Made by a program: the position numbers and the translations under genes
Part shown: in pieces, positions 1-45,123 of the stretch
Layout: every line of letters begins with the position of its first letter
Position numbering within the stretch: position 1 is the stretch's first letter
UHGV virus genome: UHGV-0200554
DNA: 64,000 nucleotides
Origin: a virus
Reading direction: 5' to 3' (one strand)
The notes under the pieces: model-generated
Seen by the model: the letters and a program-made list of their open reading frames with translations, nothing else
Told to the model about the DNA's origin: nothing
Database searches by the model: none

Positions 1-113
1 AAGGCGGCGCGGATGATTTTGCAAAAAGGTACGGTTTTAATAATGCCAACGAGATGATCGAGGCGGTTGTACTCCAGGCAGAAGAAGACTACGCAGAAAG
101 GGCGCTTGGTTAA
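1..113 (+). CDS. 3' end of an upstream gene (partial, C-terminal ~36 codons ending ...QAEEDYAERALG)
   Basis: Open frame from window edge to TAA at 111-113; no function assignable. Confidence 0.25.
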   Translation, partial: GGADDFAKRYGFNNANEMIEAVVLQAEEDYAERALG

Positions 114-156
114 TACACGGGCCGAAAGGCCCACCACACAAAGAGGAGTAAAAATT

Positions 157-351
157 ATGGCACTTAAAAAATTAACTGAAAAAACTCGTTGGGATATGAT
201 CGACGGGGAAGTCTATATTTTCGCCCGTAAACCTGGCGATCAAAAATGGGTAAAAGCGTTCACTTGTCACCCTGCTGTTATTGACCTCATTAAAAGTAAA
301 GGCCTACGTGAAGCAGTGGCACGTAGTCTATTAATCCCTTGCAAAGAATAA
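157..351 (+). CDS. small hypothetical protein (64 aa; track ORF 67..351 probably over-extended 5')
   Basis: ATG at 157 preceded by AAAGAGGAG RBS; followed by intrinsic terminator. Confidence 0.5.
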   Translation: MALKKLTEKTRWDMIDGEVYIFARKPGDQKWVKAFTCHPAVIDLIKSKGLREAVARSLLIPCKE

Positions 352-373
352 TATAACTGACGAAATAATAAGA

Positions 374-398
374 GGCCGCAAATAAGCGGCCTTTTTGT
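374..398 (+). terminator. rho-independent terminator (GGCCGC-loop-GCGGCC + T5)
   Basis: GC hairpin followed by TTTTT read directly in sequence. Confidence 0.6.
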
Positions 399-1059
399 TG
401 TCTGTAGTATAGTGAATCCGGTATTCAAAACAGCGGATCATTCCGCGAACGCTATGCGTGATGTGTGCATAAAATAAAATGCCTATAAATTAACCACACC
501 ACAAAAAAGCTGTATGTGCATACATAGTTTTTAAGTTTTTTCAGTTTTCAGCTGTCAAATGTGGGGCATTTTGTGAAGTATCTCACACTTTTCGGCTGAT
601 GCACATTTTATATAGCTATGTCAACAACTATAAATCTTTATAAAACAGTAAGTTACAAAGTCCATTTTTTGAAAAATCGGGTATAACTATAGGCGCGAAA
701 TTCTATTTTTCACGTAGCGTCACGATAAGATGTATCTGATAGGTATGTTTTAATTATGCAATATTAATGCATAACCAACATGTGATAAATATTCTCAACA
801 ACCCGGCAGATGTATTAAATATGGTGACTATTCCACCCCACATTATTTCAGACGGCAACTATTCCGATGTGTGATTAATATACTTTCAGGCGGTGATTAT
901 TCTGTATCTCAATAATCTATATAATATAATATTAGTAATATAATTAGATTATGAGATACAAGAAAACATCTAAAATAGTAAAATTACAATTAATGAAAAT
1001 ATATAAATTGCATAAAATAAAATAAGACAAATAACAATTTGCGAATGCAATGATCACAA

Positions 1060-1481
1060 TATGCAACGATAACATGGCGCGACCGGAGGGAGCGACATAA
1101 TAACGCTGAGTGACAATAACACCCCCGTGTTATTATCCAGCATTATTATCTCGCTAATTTATGATTATCTCATAAATTAACATGTAATAATCCTCAGCGT
1201 TATTATGTCCTCCAATAACAATAAAAATTGTTATGGTAACGCTGAGTTATTACTATGTTAATAAAAGGGCATAAAGCCCGGTACTATGTACCATTAAATA
1301 ATCTAAAACGATTACGTTTTCTCAGCGTTATTGTGTCAAATGTTATGATAACAGTATATAATTATCTTGCTAACTTTCAGTATACATATTCCGCGTAGCG
1401 TCATGTGGAGCGTGTAGTAAACCTGTAGCAAGATAAGAATAACGCTGAGGTATTGTACCGTATGCAACGATAACATGGCGC
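1060..1481. repeat. iteron block: 21-bp direct repeats TATGCAACGATAACATGGCGC at 1060-1080 and 1461-1481 flanking five copies of ATAACGCTGAG in alternating orientation (about 1095-1110, 1193-1209, 1237-1246, 1321-1337, 1438-1449)
   Basis: Exact repeats read in sequence; includes 17-bp inverted pair GACATAATAACGCTGAG / CTCAGCGTTATTATGTC. Confidence 0.6.
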
Positions 1482-1645
1482 AACTATAACAGGCCTAAAG
1501 AGTAAGATAAACAATAGTTTATGTGTATAATCGGCGGGGCCTCCTGGCTGCGCTGTGTGAAACTATCATGTATGGAAACAGTCCAGGATGTTATGATTTC
1601 AGCATGGGATTGTGTGTTTTTGAATTGTGTACGGGTAAACTGTGT

Positions 1646-1701
1646 GGGGTAAGTATAGGGGAAGTATAGGGGAAGTATAGGGGAAGTATAGGGGAAGTAT
1701 G
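1646..1701. repeat. tandem array of ~5 copies of 11-bp unit GGGGAAGTATA
   Basis: Head-to-tail copies with one-helical-turn periodicity; no spacers, so not CRISPR. Confidence 0.7.
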
Positions 1702-2008
1702 CCTAACAAATTTCGTTCTTTTTGTCAACAATTTTTCTATGAAAGTGGTCCGACCAGTTATAAGATGCATCTACGGAGCATGTTATGTAGCTGGTATGGT
1801 AGTGTGCCAGTGCAATATGATGCCCGGTCATAGCTTGTGTGGTGTACCTGTTACACCAGTAAATAGAATTAATAGCAGGCTAACTACTACAATGATTAAT
1901 CTTTTAGTGCTGTAATAAACCGCAATTATTCTCCTTTCGATTGTTTTCGTTTCCTTTCGTTTCTTATCGTTTGAGCTGTGTTTTATTCCGCGTAGCGTCA
2001 TGCTGAGC

Positions 2009-2048
2009 TGTGGATAAGTCTGTGGATAACCCTGCCTCCTGTGGATAA
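2009..2048. promoter_or_regulatory. three perfect DnaA boxes TGTGGATAA (reverse complement TTATCCACA) at 2009-2017, 2021-2029, 2040-2048, same orientation
   Basis: 9-mers match the E. coli DnaA box consensus exactly; clustered within 40 bp. Confidence 0.65.
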
Positions 2049-2911
2049 CTGGCCTGCTATGCCTGCTGTGTGGTACTATTGAACTACTGTACAAATGATC
2101 ATAAGTGCGTATAATCGGTGTTACGTATGATGAACAATACGAAGTAATAATTATTCCCACATGAGAAGGCTTATCATTTACTTAAATGTTGCTGTGGAAA
2201 ACTGTAACGCATGTTATTATTCAACCCCACACAATGAGGGCGTGAACAGTCCCCCCCTATAATCACTGTGTGCAACTATTAATCACTGTGAGTAACTACC
2301 ATGCAATAACTAGGCCAATGGTCGCAAGGCCCCGGCTATCAATTGCGTAAACAGCCTCGATATTTGAGAATCATTCGCATTATGAGAAGGAGTCGCGTTT
2401 CGCCTGCCTAATACCTCAGATGTGAGTCTGGGTGTATCGGCCCCGCACTACCCCTGCTTCAGGACAGGACCTGCGGTCCGGTGACAACAACTTGTTGTGC
2501 ACCATTGAGGATATTTGCCCCGGTTTGTATGAATACCTCTTCAGGCTGTGTACCTCCCCGTAGGGGGGGTATGGTGAGAGGTAGTACGAATAAAAAAAAA
2601 ATGAAGCCCTCTTCAGGCCTGTGATATTTGTGTGGCTGATATTTGTGGGGAATCCAGTATTTACGGGACTCCTGGACAGGGCGGGGAGGTATACACAAAG
2701 GAGGTATTATGTTAAAGATATGTTAAAATATGTGGTGCTCTTTAGGCATTATTCTTCAATGAAATCAAGTGCTTAGGCTATGTGTGGGTATTTTCTGTGA
2801 ATAATTGGCATGTTAATCGGATCAAAGAGGATTAAAGAAGGGAAATGATTTGACTCTTCATGCCACTTGTGGTATATTTTCGATACTGGTAAAGGGGGTT
2901 CGGAGGTCAGG

Positions 2912-3286
2912 ATGTTTGAGTTCAAAGCTGATGCTCAGGAGTTCTACAACAAAGTTGCTAAGCCTGTTGTGGAGTCTGTTCAGGAACACCCTGCAAGCAG
3001 ACCTACTTCTGTGGGGATAAAAGGTGTTAGCAAGTACTACAGAGGTAAACATGTGTATTACAGGGCTTACATCTGGGTAACACGCCACACTGTGAACAAG
3101 CAGTTGATCAAAACGTTTAAAACTCTGGAAGAAGCTGTAGCTCAAAGGCAGGAATGGGAACAGGTGAAGGATATTTTGGACGGGAAAGTAGCGATGGTAT
3201 TACCTTTTGAATGGGATATGGTGTATGCTTCTAAATACTGGGAAGTTTATCATGGAATGGCTCAGGAGCAGGATGAAGATTATTAA
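2912..3286 (+). CDS. stand-alone AP2-domain DNA-binding protein (homing-endonuclease-associated type)
   Basis: GGAGG RBS before ATG 2912; AP2-like signature (KGVSKYYRGK..YRAYI..KTFKTLEEAVAQRQEW); no HNH motif. Confidence 0.5.
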   Translation: MFEFKADAQEFYNKVAKPVVESVQEHPASRPTSVGIKGVSKYYRGKHVYYRAYIWVTRHTVNKQLIKTFKTLEEAVAQRQEWEQVKDILDGKVAMVLPFEWDMVYASKYWEVYHGMAQEQDEDY

Positions 3287-3801
3287 TGGACCGTGAAGGT
3301 CCGGCATGTAATGCCAGTTTATGGAATGTAATTTGTAGGCATGGAAGCTATTATTTTGCTTAGCTCTGTAATGATTAGCAGGCTGTGTGCTACAACCTTG
3401 TTGTACCTGAATCCTTAGGTTTCTAATGATTAGTTTGCTAAGTATTTATATGTGCCTAACCCCCTACCCCCGGTTCTAGTCTCCCCAACAACGCTGGTAC
3501 TTAAACTCTACCGTTATTGTGCCTTACTGCCCATATTACATCGCAGTTGGCTGGTCACTATAACCGCTCCCGCTCTCCAACCTCGACAAGCTCGTGCGAT
3601 ACTCCATTCATTCGGATGTTCACGCTGTTCACTCAGTCGATATTCCCCTATCTCCTTCAATCCGAAGAGAGAGAAACCCAGAATCGTATTCTGGAAAAGA
3701 GAGAGAAGATCTAAATTATAGCAGGAGATGAGAGGAATTGCAATATGGAGGATACCTACCAGAATTGGTAGGCATATGTGGACAGCACTTATTGACAAAA
3801 A

Positions 3802-4029
3802 CTACTCCGTATCGATATCTACCTCTGTGCCTTCCTCAGGTACAGATAACATAGCCATCTGTAGAGCTTCCTCCCAGTTAGTGCGCTCAGCCTGAGCCAC
3901 CAACTCATCCGGGTCTTTACCCAATGCTTCAGCTAACCGAGATACATAGAGTACACCAGGGAGAAGTTCAGGATCAAATTCAAGATAGAGAATCCCATCC
4001 CCATCTTCTGTGAAAAGCTCAAGTCGCAT
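3802..4029 (-). CDS. hypothetical acidic protein (75 aa)
   Basis: ORF in co-directional leftward gene block. Confidence 0.45.
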   Translation of the reverse strand: MRLELFTEDGDGILYLEFDPELLPGVLYVSRLAEALGKDPDELVAQAERTNWEEALQMAMLSVPEEGTEVDIDTE

Positions 4030-4284
4030 ACTGGCTCCTTATGTTGACTTCATACAGGTTGTACGATGCCTAAAGAGTGAAATTACTTTGTCTCTTCAGG
4101 CAACAGAGCTTGCGATTGTTGTGGATGTGTGGGCAGAGAAGCTACATAGTAGTGAATAGCTCCACGACATACTACAACAGTATGCATATCATTGTGACCG
4201 CTCCAGCTACACACAATATAGCACTTATGATTGCTAATGAGAACAGGCAGTAGCTGATAGCTGTGTCTGTAATATCACTTACCC

Positions 4285-4500
4285 TCATACGCTTCTCCTT
4301 GTTGCTCTTGCTACTTCAAAATAGTCTACATATCTTGATTCTTGCAGGATACGATAGCCTTCCCTATCTGCGTCTTCGATTGTGTGGAAGCGATCTCCAA
4401 GCTCCATACGCTCACCAGATTGTAAAACAATTATCAGCTTGTACATAGACCCTCCTTCATAATGCAAACTGATAATAGCACAGACAGGAGAAGGAGTCAA
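4285..4500 (-). CDS. hypothetical protein (71 aa)
   Basis: ORF in leftward block. Confidence 0.4.
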   Translation of the reverse strand: MTPSPVCAIISLHYEGGSMYKLIIVLQSGERMELGDRFHTIEDADREGYRILQESRYVDYFEVARATRRSV

Positions 4501-4742
4501 GCATAAACCGTGAAGAAAATAGATTATTTTCTGAGCAGTGAAGGTAAGGCTGGAAAAATTTTGGACAGCTCGCCGCTGGCGAGGAAATGTACAGACCCCC
4601 CCTAAAACGTAATAAGAGGGCCTGTAATGGGTTTTTAGGTTAGGGTAGGGTGTTTGCTCAAGTTCTTGCGAAAAATGCGTCAGAATTGCATCTAGGCCCC
4701 TTAAATTTGAAATCTGAGGTCTGTTTTTAGTCTTAGGGTCCT

Positions 4743-4958
4743 CTAAAAGTCCTCCCTTTCACGAAGTATTTTAGTGAACCCTTCAAGCCAGGTAGTGTCT
4801 GTGATCATATCAAGATCCTGTGCAAGTGCACGTCTGACGTTCCTTTTATGCACCGCAGTTAGTGTTACCCAAAAGTCCAGAGGCATGTTGGCTAGACAAG
4901 AATTGTCGAAAGGGTAATTATGCACCTTACCTTCAGAGCAGAGCACACTGAAATCCAT
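4743..4958 (-). CDS. hypothetical protein (71 aa)
   Basis: ORF in leftward block. Confidence 0.4.
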   Translation of the reverse strand: MDFSVLCSEGKVHNYPFDNSCLANMPLDFWVTLTAVHKRNVRRALAQDLDMITDTTWLEGFTKILREREDF

Positions 4959-4974
4959 TTGGCATCACCTCCGA

Positions 4975-5265
4975 TCACTTATGATCAGCGTCGTAGTCTT
5001 TCCAGGGGAGAAATTCGCAATCAAGGCCGGGGGCAACAACCTCACCAGTAGTAAGACCTTGCAGGAAGATAGTCTGCCCAGTTTCTGTAACGATGCATTC
5101 AAAATTCCTCTGATGGGCATAAAGCACCGTATAGATCTCGCCGAGGTACAACCCTTTGATACCGCCTGTTTTTACGCACATGACGCTCATAAGAGGGTAT
5201 AAACCTTCTTCACAAGTTAGTTTGCTCAGTTCTCTCATAGTGTATCTCATTGTGTCCTCCATCAT
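4975..5265 (-). CDS. hypothetical protein (96 aa)
   Basis: ORF; 4-nt overlap with next gene suggests coupling. Confidence 0.45.
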   Translation of the reverse strand: MMEDTMRYTMRELSKLTCEEGLYPLMSVMCVKTGGIKGLYLGEIYTVLYAHQRNFECIVTETGQTIFLQGLTTGEVVAPGLDCEFLPWKDYDADHK

Positions 5266-5614: not shown

Positions 5615-5920
5615 TTATTCTGCTGAACGCTTGAAGAGGATATCAGTCTCTTCCATTGCGTCAACTTCGGCTTCCAGTTTCGCGCGACGTTTCTCTGATT
5701 CATATCTCTTATCGAATTCAGTAGCCACCAGTGACTTCAGGAATTTAGGAGAAATCAAGTGATCTTCTTTTTCCACCTTGATAATATCCTTCATTGCTTC
5801 CTTCATGTCTTTAATTTTCAACTGGAGATCAACCAGTTCTTCAACTGTTTTACGCAGACGTTCGCGTTCTGCTGGGTCAGCCGGAAGAGAAGTAAACAGT
5901 TCAACTTTAGTACGTGCCAT
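5615..5920 (-). CDS. hypothetical charged helical (coiled-coil-like) protein (101 aa)
   Basis: ORF; KE-rich heptad-like sequence. Confidence 0.5.
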   Translation of the reverse strand: MARTKVELFTSLPADPAERERLRKTVEELVDLQLKIKDMKEAMKDIIKVEKEDHLISPKFLKSLVATEFDKRYESEKRRAKLEAEVDAMEETDILFKRSAE

Positions 5921-40488: not shown

Positions 40489-40564
40489 GCCCCGTTAGTT
40501 CAAATGGAAGAACAGTGGCCTTCTAAGCCATAGGTTACAGGTTCGAGTCCTGTACGGGGTGCCA
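40489..40564 (+). tRNA. tRNA-Arg (anticodon UCU, reads AGA/AGG), CCA encoded
   Basis: Hand-folded cloverleaf: 7-bp acceptor, 4-bp D stem, 5-bp anticodon stem with loop CTTCTAA, 5-bp T stem with TTCGAGT, GCCA 3' end. Confidence 0.85.
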
Positions 40565-41398: not shown

Positions 41399-41691
41399 GG
41401 TGGTTACTTGCATTAGCGATTGCACTCACGTTTTCTATGGCCCTGGTAGGTTGTAGCTCACCTAAAAGTACGCCAGTTACAGTTGCACCGCAGAAAGTTG
41501 AACAACTTGCTGTAGAGCCTCCTGCGGCAGCTATGATCCCACCAGCAATAGCTATCCCCTTGGTGAAAGGTGCACCAGATGCGGATAACTCTGCAATTAT
41601 GAGGCAGAACAATCTCTCCTGTAGCAATGATCGTGCCAAATTAATCATCTTGCAGGATTATGTAAAATCTTTATTCAATAAGGAGAATTAA
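41395..41691 (+). CDS. o-spanin (Rz1-like outer-membrane lipoprotein)
   Basis: Signal peptide with lipobox LVGC, Pro-rich mature part. Confidence 0.55.
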   Translation: MRWLLALAIALTFSMALVGCSSPKSTPVTVAPQKVEQLAVEPPAAAMIPPAIAIPLVKGAPDADNSAIMRQNNLSCSNDRAKLIILQDYVKSLFNKEN

Positions 41692-42806
41692 TGGCTAAAA
41701 TGTATGGCCCATGCTCCCGTAAACAACAAATGATTCTGGAAAATGATGCCGACTTCCTGATCATTGGTGGGGCAGCGGGTTGTTTGTCAATGCGACATGA
41801 GGTGATGACACCTAACGGGTGGATCAGAATATCGGAATGGGATGGTCAAGATATCCTCCAGTTTGATAAAGAAACTGGTAAGGCCATGTTTATCCAGCCT
41901 GAAGAGTTTGTTAAGCTGGAATGCGACAAACTAACCAGGATTGTGCAGGATGGTATTTGTCAGGAATTATCCGACGAGCACACAGTTCTGTACGTCCCAG
42001 AAGACGGAACAGCTTACGGTACACTTAATTTCGGAGAAGTGGCTGAACAGTATGCTAACGGTGAGTTGGCAATGCGTATGCAGACCACGTTTGTGAACAT
42101 GGGTGGTACTGGCCTTGGCATTTCTGACGAAGAGCTGAAAGAAAGGGCAAGATATTACAAATTCACAGATGAGTGGTATAATTGTGATCGTCGTCAGTTG
42201 TTGCAGATCTGGTATGAGATTTACCTGAACGGTAATGATCCCCATGCCTACGTTGTTCCAACGAAAGAACAGGCTGATTTCTTGCAATACCTCGGATCAT
42301 CTTTAGGTTTCAACGCACAGATCTTCTTCGAAGAAGGTTACAAAGTTGTGTTCTCTAATGAACGTGCAGGTACGATTGCTCTTAATAACGATGCAACGTT
42401 CGAAGAGTTTGAGCCGGAAGATGGTTACAAATATTGTTTTGCTACCACAACAGGCTATTTTATCACCAGACTGGAAAACTGCATTGCAGTGACTGGTAAC
42501 AGTGGTAAATCCTTTCTTCTACAGCTTCTCCCACTAAAGATGATAGATGACCCCAACACTTCTGTGGTGATGTTCCGTAGGACAACTCCACAACTGGAAG
42601 GTGAAGGTGGTCTGTGGCCTAAAGCACTGAGTGTGTATCTGGATCTTCCTGAGTACATGAGGCCGAAATTCAGAGAGAAAGACCATAAGTTTACTTTTCC
42701 ATATTATGATGCAAAGACGGGCAAATGGAATAAGAAAAGAGACGGAGCAGTAATCAAATACTGCCATATGGAATACGTCCAAGATAAGCTGAATCATCAA
42801 GGGTAA
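41691..42806 (+). CDS. terL: terminase large subunit, exon 1 (ATPase N-terminal part; contains intein; ORF runs into intron to first stop)
   Basis: P-loop split as IIGGAAG / SGKSFLLQ around a 240-aa insert; true 3' exon boundary undetermined. Confidence 0.7.
   Translation: MAKMYGPCSRKQQMILENDADFLIIGGAAGCLSMRHEVMTPNGWIRISEWDGQDILQFDKETGKAMFIQPEEFVKLECDKLTRIVQDGICQELSDEHTVLYVPEDGTAYGTLNFGEVAEQYANGELAMRMQTTFVNMGGTGLGISDEELKERARYYKFTDEWYNCDRRQLLQIWYEIYLNGNDPHAYVVPTKEQADFLQYLGSSLGFNAQIFFEEGYKVVFSNERAGTIALNNDATFEEFEPEDGYKYCFATTTGYFITRLENCIAVTGNSGKSFLLQLLPLKMIDDPNTSVVMFRRTTPQLEGEGGLWPKALSVYLDLPEYMRPKFREKDHKFTFPYYDAKTGKWNKKRDGAVIKYCHMEYVQDKLNHQG
41781..42500 (+). mobile_element. intein (~240 aa) inserted in the terminase Walker A motif
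   Basis: Insert begins Cys (CLSMRHEVMTPNGWIRISEW, block-A-like), ends ...CIAVTGN followed by Ser; excision predicts GGAAGSGKS. Confidence 0.55.
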
Positions 42807-43642: not shown

Positions 43643-43927
43643 ATGTGTGAGAAGTTCTATCAGCTTGAGAAGAAATTTCACATAACAAAAGACGAATATT
43701 TTCGTCTACTCTCAGATCAAGATTATAAATGTGCCATTTGCGGGATATCACTTGATGAGTATAGGTCGCAAGGGTACAGAGATTTCTTTAGTGTTGATCA
43801 TGACCATAAGACTGGCGCTGTAAGAGGTTTGCTTTGTGATAAGTGTAACAGAGCTTTAGGTTTTTTCCAGGAGGATGAGGAAACTCTTCTTAAAGCGGCA
43901 GAGTATTTACACACTCATAAGATATAG
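43643..43927 (+). CDS. intron-encoded endonuclease VII-type HNH endonuclease
   Basis: DHDHKTGAVRGLLCDKCNRALG signature; stop codon overlaps intron S element. Confidence 0.6.
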   Translation: MCEKFYQLEKKFHITKDEYFRLLSDQDYKCAICGISLDEYRSQGYRDFFSVDHDHKTGAVRGLLCDKCNRALGFFQEDEETLLKAAEYLHTHKI

Positions 43928-44043: not shown

Positions 44044-45123
44044 ATGAGGTCGAAATCGAAATACTCTTCACGGATGGTGATCAGCTGTAACCCGGATTCT
44101 GAACACTATTTAGCCAAACTGGTTCGTTGGTGGCTTGACGACGAGGGCTACCCAGATGAAAGCAAGTGTGGCGTTAAGCGCTATTTCATCCGTAGGGATG
44201 GGGAATTTATCTTCGGCGATACGCCAGAAGAGTTGATCGAGAAGTATACCTATGTTAACGGCAAAGGTGTTGAGATAATCCCAAAACCACTCTCTATCGC
44301 TTTTATCGGTGCAACAATCCACGATAACCCCATCTGCTTGCGTGATAACCCAGAATATCTTGCATTCCTGGAAGGTCTGCCAGAGCTGGAAAAAGCACAA
44401 CTCCTCTACGGTAACTGGTTCGCTAAGCCTGAAGGTGCAAACTATTTCAGTCGCACATTCTTGAAAGATGCGGATCATGTCCCCCTCGGAGCAGTTTCTG
44501 TAAGAGCATGGGATAAAGCTGGTACAGAACGTACCTCTGGCAACAAATTCCCCGACTATACAGCCAGTATCAAGGTCAGTAAGGATAGTGATGGTTACTA
44601 CTACATCTCCGGTGACTATTGCCCTGAAAACGTAGATGATGGCAGATATTCTACGGGCTTGCACGGTAAGTTCTGCAAGAAAGCTGGGGAACGTGATGTT
44701 ATTATCAAGAAACAGGCAGAGTTTGATGGTGAGGACTGCGTAATTGTCTTCTCTGTGGACCCCGGTCAGGCAGGTAAGAGTGAGTTTCTTACTTCATCTC
44801 GTAAACTTCTTGCCGGAGGGTTCAGGGTAGAAGAAGACCCAATGCCGTCTAACAAATCAAAACTCACCCGTTTCTCCCCGTTTGCCAACCTTGCCCAACA
44901 AGGGATGGTGCGGCTTGTCCGGTCAAGTTTCGACCCGGATACACTGGAAGCATTTTTGACAGAGCTGGAGAAATTTAACGGCGAACGGTCAACCTTTAGC
45001 CGTAAAGATGATTGGGCTGACTCCATTGCTTCTGCAATTAACTACCTTGAAAAAGAGGAAGTTGCTATGCCATGTGTTATTCCGAAGATTGTTTCACCCT
45101 CTATGTATAAGAGGATGATTTAA
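44044..45123 (+). CDS. terL: terminase large subunit, exon 2 (ATPase end and nuclease domain; true 5' exon boundary is upstream of this ATG)
   Basis: YLISRMRS...VISCNP and acidic nuclease-like C-terminal region; frame open upstream to ~43921. Confidence 0.7.
   Translation: MRSKSKYSSRMVISCNPDSEHYLAKLVRWWLDDEGYPDESKCGVKRYFIRRDGEFIFGDTPEELIEKYTYVNGKGVEIIPKPLSIAFIGATIHDNPICLRDNPEYLAFLEGLPELEKAQLLYGNWFAKPEGANYFSRTFLKDADHVPLGAVSVRAWDKAGTERTSGNKFPDYTASIKVSKDSDGYYYISGDYCPENVDDGRYSTGLHGKFCKKAGERDVIIKKQAEFDGEDCVIVFSVDPGQAGKSEFLTSSRKLLAGGFRVEEDPMPSNKSKLTRFSPFANLAQQGMVRLVRSSFDPDTLEAFLTELEKFNGERSTFSRKDDWADSIASAINYLEKEEVAMPCVIPKIVSPSMYKRMI

Follow-up and report, generated by a model that had tools for sequence, protein, structure and literature searches.

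Pairs of DnaA boxes in the terminal repeat of phage T5 go back to Heusterspreute (1987), as cited by Davison (2020; bioRxiv 10.1101/866236). According to the latter work, T5-like phages carry approximately eight boxes, 'always in pairs separated by 3 bp', variants of the form TTATTAACA included, and this DnaA* variant was reported to be common in the T5-like group. Membrane-bound DnaA was proposed to stop T5 injection, and the T5 origins were mapped near the centre of the genome (10.1101/866236). More recent papers describe the T5 boxes as having a role that was never put to the test (PMC10644984, PMC13250531).

Arrays of DnaA boxes are also found in bacterial and plasmid loci, including the left half of E. 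coli oriC, which has the order DUE-R1-IHF site-R5M…, and the E. coli datA locus. Iteron-type origins such as P1 oriR and RK2 oriV have tandem DnaA boxes edging short tandem repeats and AT-rich DNA. The rV5-like phages have found wide use in E. coli O157 typing and in phage therapy. To our knowledge, neither an origin nor a cis-acting control site has so far been described for these phages, and skew changes are reportedly all that the rV5 genome paper could report. Here we describe a cluster of DnaA boxes in a relative of these phages. The window analysed, that is, the whole stretch of DNA, covers 64 kb of an approximately 140-kb genome.

A new relative of the rV5-like myoviruses

Judged from its alignments, the window is from a new relative of the rV5-like (Vequintavirinae) myoviruses. 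Its first 8 kb gave a patchy 75-78% alignment to Vequintavirus (rV5-like) E. coli myoviruses, and the tape-measure protein was just ~57% identical to its Vequintavirus counterpart. The genes found in the window include those for NrdD, ligase, portal, tape-measure, and a T4-type large terminase. The latter appears split into two parts (41691-42806 and 44044-45123; Terminase_6N/6C) with an Endonuclease_7-type ORF between them (43643-43927), and the sole tRNA gene of the window, tRNA-Arg (TCT), lies at 40489-40564. Five relatives, L123 and L125 from IMG/VR and L135, L136, and L137 from metagenomes, showed 75-88% identity to the window and were compared with it in a six-way alignment. Five GenBank records labeled 'Campylobacter phage' (MG065653, MG065658, MG065661, MG065666, and MG065674; phages C14, C7, C9, A12a, and A140) match the Vequintavirus-type region as well as E. 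coli phages do, and their host labels look doubtful.

All the elements discussed below lie in a gene-free block at 352-2911 (2.56 kb), which is syntenic with a gene-free gap of ~2.4 kb at the equivalent place in Vequintavirus naswa and EmilHeitz. Megablast of this block against GenBank phages found no near-identical match. The preliminary description had assigned the boxes to a long non-coding region, and this setting was borne out: the block holds only short ORFs, and a coding reading of the longest one over the boxes (1828-2160, minus strand, 110 aa) was rejected, as it is broken by a 32-bp indel in the five relatives. A scan of 1-5000 against Rfam gave only sub-threshold chance matches. The edges of the block are collinear with Vequintavirus (579-789, 2314-2409, 2601-2697, 2746-2820, and 3494-3743), and its centre, boxes included, has diverged. 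Of the flanking genes, one encodes a 64-aa product without assigned function and the other an AP2-like DNA-binding protein, with no Rep-family initiator found. The AP2-like gene (2912-3286, plus strand), the first past the block, is absent at the equivalent place in Vequintavirus; its 124-aa product matches phrog_99 (E = 6e-5), and the similarity to phage HNH endonucleases is confined to their DNA-binding (AP2-like) part.

Four DnaA boxes and their conservation

Three exact 9-mers in the same orientation within 40 bp had been reported in the preliminary description, and all three were confirmed on the plus strand. Box 1 (2009-2017) reads TGTGGATAA, or CTGTGGATAAG with its flanks, whereas box 2 (2021-2029) and box 3 (2040-2048) both read CTGTGGATAAC with flanks. 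The gap between boxes 1 and 2 is 3 bp (GTC), and that between boxes 2 and 3 is 10 bp (2030-2039), the latter two starting 19 bp apart. A search of both strands of the window identified only these three copies of TGTGGATAA, all on the plus strand (three copies of the exact high-affinity 9-mer TTATCCACA), compared to 0.79 copies expected in a shuffled window; a same-strand triplet within 40 bp is expected ~2e-9 times per window from base composition. The relaxed consensus TTWTNCACA yielded one further site by the triplet, box 4 (2193-2201, plus strand; TGTGGAAAA), located 184 bp from box 1, and the four conserved boxes are clustered within 193 bp. Seven consensus boxes (TGTGNAWAA) occur in 400-2900, all on the plus strand (~0.36 expected), and six occur in the other 61 kb of the window. 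Box 4, the plus-strand bias of the seven boxes, and the predicted terminal-repeat location considered below had been missed before.

Boxes 2, 3, and 4 with their immediate flanks are invariant in all six genomes. Of the ten spacer columns that separate boxes 2 and 3, just two are invariant, and the length of this spacer is fixed in all six. Box 1 matches perfectly in four of the genomes and reads TGTTAATAA (equivalent to TTATTAACA) in L135 and L137, and conservation in the relatives does not extend to the outlying boxes at 1522 and 2796. The background invariance of the alignment is high (73%), and 27 of 27 invariant columns were also obtained in 12 of 584 circular shifts, suggesting that the whole segment is densely constrained and that the boxes are one of several conserved elements in it. 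Based on these counts and alignments, we concluded that the array is genuine, well in excess of chance, and maintained by purifying selection.

The homologue of box 4 in Vequintavirus is a one-mismatch box, TGTGCGTAA, and the Vequintavirus terminal repeats contain no consensus box, just two to four one-mismatch sites. Likewise, no consensus boxes were detected at 112-121 kb of Mydovirus KB57, a stretch that covers the reported repeat coordinates of its close relative KPP-1; this stretch was fetched directly, since gene order differs and the regulator gene at 5615-5920 is no guide to the block in other genera. The segment at ~1895-2155, which holds AT-rich DNA, the TCG(A/T)TT repeats, the triplet, and a promoter-like element, has no counterpart in Vequintavirus. 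The absence of the triplet from both Vequintavirus and Mydovirus marks it as a clade-specific addition, and the lack of consensus boxes at the homologous place in the sister genera shows that the array is dispensable for the basic replication of the subfamily.

Sequence elements around the boxes

Within 200 bp on the 5' side of the boxes, duplex stability is lowest in a highly conserved AT-rich segment (1861-1930), which includes invariant runs at 1896-1910 and 1914-1931 and is among the least stable 1-3% of the genome. The least stable 60-mer 5' of the boxes has a dG of -66 to -71 in the six genomes, compared to a phage mean of -78.8. This segment is followed by a T-rich tract (1931-1975, plus strand) with four TCG(A/T)TT repeats at exact 10-bp phase, which contains TCGTTTCCTTTC and which in the relatives abuts box 1; the excess of T over A in the upstream T-rich DNA (T minus A) is 0.33-0.48. 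A 32-bp insertion beside box 1 (…TTATTCCGCGTAGCGTCATGC…; 1972-2007, plus strand), its placement ambiguous from the flanking TGAGCTGTG duplication, occurs in the window only and is missing from all five relatives; a second copy of the element is found at 1387. The repeated element, TATTCCGCGTAGCGTCATG, spans 1387-1411 and 1984-2008, with a diverged copy at 706-730, and an exact search of IMG/VR for this window-specific sequence gave no matches. L123 has GC-rich insertions (CCACCTGGCGTAGCCAG[CT]GAAAGT) at three places. Both the TATTCCGCGTAGCGTCATG copies and these insertions are reminiscent of miniature mobile repeats.

Between the triplet and box 4, a weak promoter-like candidate, TGTACA-16-TATAAT, was found at 2088-2115 (plus strand); its -10 element is TATAAT in the window and L137 only and TATAAC in the four other relatives. 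The IHF-like site TATCATTTACTTA (2172-2184, plus strand) lies 21 bp upstream of box 4 and has one mismatch to the consensus WATCAANNNNTTR; the perfect consensus is present at the same place in all five relatives, with the NNNN positions varying. The background density of IHF-like sites is 0.14 per kb. On the other side of the boxes, an 11-bp tandem array of four to five GGGGAAGTATA copies (1642-1704, plus strand) reaches precisely to the left edge predicted for the terminal repeat, and the six genomes vary in both the number and the sequence of its units.

Several further features of the block were observed at a greater distance from the boxes. The tetramer TGTG is approximately 4-fold more frequent on the plus than on the minus strand of 400-2900 (17.2 vs 4.0 per kb) and at parity in the rest of the window (4.6 vs 4.7 per kb), and many of its copies in the block resemble TGn-extended -10 elements or TGTG[GT]AAAC repeats. 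The least stable duplex of the whole 64 kb (871-1060; 60-bp dG of -57.2 vs a mean of -78.8) lies 1 kb from the boxes, and 6 of the 29 least stable window segments fall within 600-1920. At 1060-1484, 24-bp direct repeats (TATGCAACGATAACATGGCGC) flank a zone of GACATAATAACGCTGAG inverted repeats, with a corresponding site at 5377-5632 of L001, and Vequintavirus naswa has the same architecture in other sequence. This zone would lie immediately within the right-end copy of the predicted repeat and might serve in packaging or recognition. The motif ATGAAnnCCTCTTCAGGC occurs three times (2529, 2601, and 2845), the third copy overlapping a near-consensus promoter (TTGACT-17-TGgTATATT), and 2600-2900 is almost invariant in the relatives, exceeding the neighbouring genes in conservation.

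Placement in a predicted terminal repeat

The Vequintavirus records of HdK5 (Germany) and YN3 (China) carry exact copies of their start (459 and 458 bp) at their end with the same boundaries, and both of these independent records end at the same base in the homologous non-coding block. For EdH4 and HdK5, 'short terminal redundancies of 458 bp' were reported (Korf 2019, PMC6563267). Alignment of the HdK5 and YN3 repeat boundaries to the window placed them at 1705 and 2408, giving a direct terminal repeat of 704 bp (1705-2408) predicted by homology only. The predicted right boundary matches the point at which the naswa homology block ends (2409). Among other members of the Vequintavirinae, a 514-bp repeat was reported for KPP-1 (PMC9862379), and one Vequintavirus report infers headful packaging (PMC13211470). 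The IMG/VR contigs end at window equivalents 939, 1388, and 2506, away from both predicted boundaries, and lend the prediction no support. By homology to HdK5 and YN3, all four boxes probably lie inside the terminal repeat, approximately 300 bp from one edge. An array in a direct terminal repeat would be present at both ends of the virion DNA and once per concatemer junction.

Recurrence of the module and probable docking of DnaA

For comparison with the host, E. coli oriC was taken from the mnmG-mioC interval. Its R1 (CCCTGTGGATAACAA) and R4 (TACTGTGGATAACTC) both contain the 11-mer CTGTGGATAAC of boxes 2 and 3. The exact 23-mer that spans the box pair, CTGTGGATAAGTCTGTGGATAAC, was found at no fewer than 120 IMG/VR loci (at least 120), which by their flanks represent at least 60 unrelated sequence contexts, and the box pair with any 3-nt spacer occurs in at least 120 independent IMG/VR contexts in all. 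Among the matches listed, all boxes are co-oriented at 109 of 120 23-mer loci, usually with three boxes per array. The neighbours of the module in IMG/VR are mixed and include a primase-helicase, an HTH_36 protein, a YqaJ exonuclease with ArdC, and DUF932, as well as the large terminase in two families, L013 (16 loci) and L060 (4 loci), suggesting that such arrays occur in replication modules and near genome ends alike. A search of GenBank phages for the module returned 859 records, mostly of T5-like phages, where it lies in the left terminal repeat wherever features are annotated. In Microbacterium phage Squash, the box pair lies 140 bp inside the 204-bp repeat. A 136.9-kb contig of unrelated sequence (IMGVR_UViG_3300045988_131953; L193) has almost the same layout as the window on its reverse strand (688-729), with a T-rich tract followed by three TGTGGATAA copies at 12 and 21 bp, and the box pair was also seen in several Microviridae records.

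Recruitment of host DnaA, proposed in the preliminary description with a replication origin or DnaA titration as its use, is well supported by the identity to R1 and R4, the invariance of boxes 2, 3, and 4, and the recurrence of the module in unrelated phages. Since host DnaA is the only plausible factor common to these phages, the boxes very probably dock host DnaA.

Comparison with known DnaA-box systems

With the boxes inside a predicted terminal repeat, their closest known analogue, as judged from layout and location, is the set of DnaA-box pairs in the T5 terminal repeat. T5-type arrays consist of perfect TTATCCACA boxes in same-orientation pairs with a 3-bp gap, as do boxes 1 and 2 here (GTC). 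BF23 carries CTGTGGATAAGTCTGTGGATAAG with a third box 61 bp on, plus a TGTTAATAA-3 bp-TGTGGATAA pair, and these boxes lie between predicted divergent pre-early promoters; its CTGTGGATAAGTCTGTGGATAA is identical to the box pair of the window and is likewise accompanied by a third box. The T5-type mix of consensus and DnaA* boxes (TTATCAACA, TTATTAACA) has a parallel in the TGTTAATAA boxes of L135 and L137, and both groups combine the weak variant TTATTAACA with a perfect box in one pair. Both T5 and the phage studied here are virulent, with their own replisome and a large repeat-rich untranslated region, and in both the boxes are conserved among relatives. In contrast, T5 has approximately eight boxes in four pairs within the inverted repeats IRC and IRD, whereas one direct triplet and a distal box are present here; the inverted repeats around these boxes are only short and non-nested, with none of the IRC/IRD type. 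The T5 repeat is 10 kb long and contains the pre-early genes, whereas the repeat predicted here is 0.7 kb long and gene-free. T5 injects its DNA in two steps (A1/A2-dependent), and no A1-sized ORF of the T5 kind was detected among the large ORFs scanned in the window, which comes from an unrelated family, a Vequintavirinae-like myovirus.

The locus also resembles the left half of oriC, with boxes 2 and 3 matching R1 and R4 over 11 bp, T-rich and AT-rich DNA located 5' of the box on the TGTGGATAA-reading strand, as with the DUE and then R1, and, with the perfect consensus in the relatives and one mismatch in the window, an IHF-like site followed by another same-orientation box. Unlike oriC, it has no 13-mers, DnaA-trios, or GATC cluster and no opposed right-half array, and it has three tandem high-affinity boxes instead of one strong box nucleating weak ones. 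The E. coli DUE (dG of -63.0) ends ~10 bp from R1, whereas the AT-rich DNA here is less unstable and ends 60-90 bp from box 1.

Co-oriented tandem boxes beside short tandem repeats and AT-rich DNA are shared with P1 oriR and RK2 oriV, and the 11-bp array at 1642-1704 and the TGTG[GT]AAAC repeats are candidate counterparts of iterons. Unlike these plasmid origins, the locus has no adjacent Rep-type initiator gene, and nothing points to plasmid maintenance in this virulent phage. Non-coding high-affinity boxes with an IHF-like site are reminiscent of datA, whereas the spacing here looks like that of a compact structural array.

Possible functions of the array

We rank an end-proximal replication start ahead of a T5-like genome-end role, promoter control, titration, and packaging. 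Tentatively, the array could serve as an auxiliary replication start that is specific to this clade and is not the ancestral rV5-like origin. The pair spaced by 12 bp and box 3 would seat a head-to-tail DnaA oligomer, and bending at the IHF-type site before box 4 could allow box 4 to join the complex. Such a DnaA-IHF complex might help to open the AT- and T-rich DNA just 5' of box 1, or to load the replisome on it, and DNA synthesis would then start from, or pass through, the terminal repeat. The polarity of unstable DNA followed by boxes would be that of the DUE and R1 in oriC, and replication and recombination genes (primase-helicase, HTH_36 protein, and YqaJ exonuclease) adjoin the module in several IMG/VR contexts. 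A replication start is disfavoured by the primase-helicase that rV5-like phages themselves encode (PMC3606486) and by the presence of the same module in T5, where the origins are central.

Three features that might have accompanied an origin were considered and rejected. No DnaA-trios (5'-TAG/TAA-3') were detected 5' of box 1, where TCG(A/T)TT recurs at a 10-bp phase with no 3-nt TA(G/A) periodicity, and a DnaA-trio/basal-unwinding architecture was rejected on reading this sequence. GATC is depleted in the block and not clustered there (four sites in 400-2900 vs 4.5 per kb elsewhere). A general rule of T-rich DNA 5' of such arrays was not upheld in 120 independent IMG/VR contexts (mean T minus A of 0.008, p ~0.5).

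A T5-type function at the genome ends, in which DnaA, a large share of which is membrane-bound, captures the terminal repeat during or after entry and pauses entry, or tethers or shields the ends, as proposed for the T5 boxes, is rather unlikely. T5-like phages, BF23 and Kenya-K36 among them, carry the 23-mer pair with its 3-bp gap in their terminal repeats, the TGTTAATAA-3 bp-TGTGGATAA pair is common to BF23, L135, and L137, and the T5-like and rV5-like groups are both large and virulent phages with their own replisome. The location of the boxes in a predicted terminal repeat, the Squash pair in its repeat, and the two IMG/VR families with the module next to the large terminase point in the same direction. 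However, the T5 role is itself only a proposal (PMC10644984, PMC13250531), two-step injection is not known for rV5-like phages, and there are four boxes instead of eight with no IRC/IRD-type inverted repeats around them. Moreover, the repeat predicted here is short and gene-free, so that entry halted at 300 bp would make no gene available for expression.

Alternatively, DnaA bound upstream at boxes 1-3 and downstream at box 4 might regulate the early promoters furthest to the left, tuning or timing rightward transcription from the genome end, in line with the position of the 2088-2115 candidate between the triplet and box 4, the BF23 boxes between two divergent predicted pre-early promoters, and the strong, invariant promoter-like sites that follow at 2620-2880. 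DnaA is able to activate, repress, or block transcription (PMC8203912). We nevertheless regard promoter control as improbable, as the -10 element is TATAAC in four of the six genomes, with the key T at -7 lost, the promoter scan was not enriched over shuffles (18 found vs 14.1 expected), and the triplet, at approximately -75 to -115, is far for direct control.

The E. coli datA locus, where DnaA boxes and an IHF site inactivate DnaA-ATP (PMC5010248), suggests another role, a DnaA sink in which boxes and IHF sites on hundreds of phage genomes titrate or inactivate DnaA and stop host initiation. Each repeat would contribute four conserved boxes with an adjacent IHF-like site, and a high phage copy number would presumably outnumber the chromosomal sites. 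This role is quite improbable: just four sites are constrained, with the boxes at 1522 and 2796 not conserved, the precise fixed spacing points to a structured complex and not to bulk titration, and the sister genera manage without the array.

Initiation of packaging, with the phased T-rich repeats as small-terminase sites and DnaA and IHF as architectural host factors, is slightly less probable still. IHF has such an architectural role at lambda cosB, and TCGTTTCCTTTC (1947-1958) is identical at 12 of 12 positions to the R1/R2 12-mer of cosB, a single copy noticed post hoc; the repeats are 10-bp-phased, conserved, and located in a predicted terminal repeat. This post hoc resemblance, however, was found in low-complexity DNA, the large terminase is T4-type and no Nu1-like small terminase was detected in the window (no Pfam Nu1 match), and Vequintavirus packages its DNA with repeats that have neither the tract nor the boxes. 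Finally, the ~4-fold plus-strand enrichment of TGTG across 400-2900 (43 vs 10) and the TGTG[GT]AAAC repeats nearby and in Vequintavirus might suggest that the boxes are sites for a phage protein or products of strand bias with a coincidental likeness to DnaA sites, but this is very unlikely indeed given the 11-mer identical to R1 and R4, the recurrence of the exact module across unrelated phage lineages and hosts, and the invariance of the exact consensus positions alone.

Implications

The best-supported reading of the locus is a putative DnaA(-IHF) docking array that was added to the predicted terminal repeat of one rV5-like clade. Phage-borne DnaA-box arrays are already known, and the clade adds an example, not a new kind of element. 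It is unlikely, though conceivable, that helically phased DnaA arrays in terminal repeats reflect a convergent DnaA-dependent function at the genome ends of T5-like phages, this clade, and perhaps Squash. Such a function might take the form of DnaA capturing entering or newly replicated ends, or of weak-strong pairs (TTATTAACA-3 bp-TTATCCACA) sensing the DnaA-ATP state of the host and timing early events. If it were true, the clade would offer a minimal, gene-free repeat of 0.7 kb in which to test the injection-stop boxes of T5. Work on the T5 terminal-repeat boxes dates back to 1987, and a repeat that is short and gene-free would be an easier system than T5 for testing their role.

For the rV5-like phages, the predicted repeat would place their large non-coding block at the physical ends of the genome. 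The presence of the module in many unrelated viral contigs suggests that the use of host DnaA by phages is wider than generally recognised.
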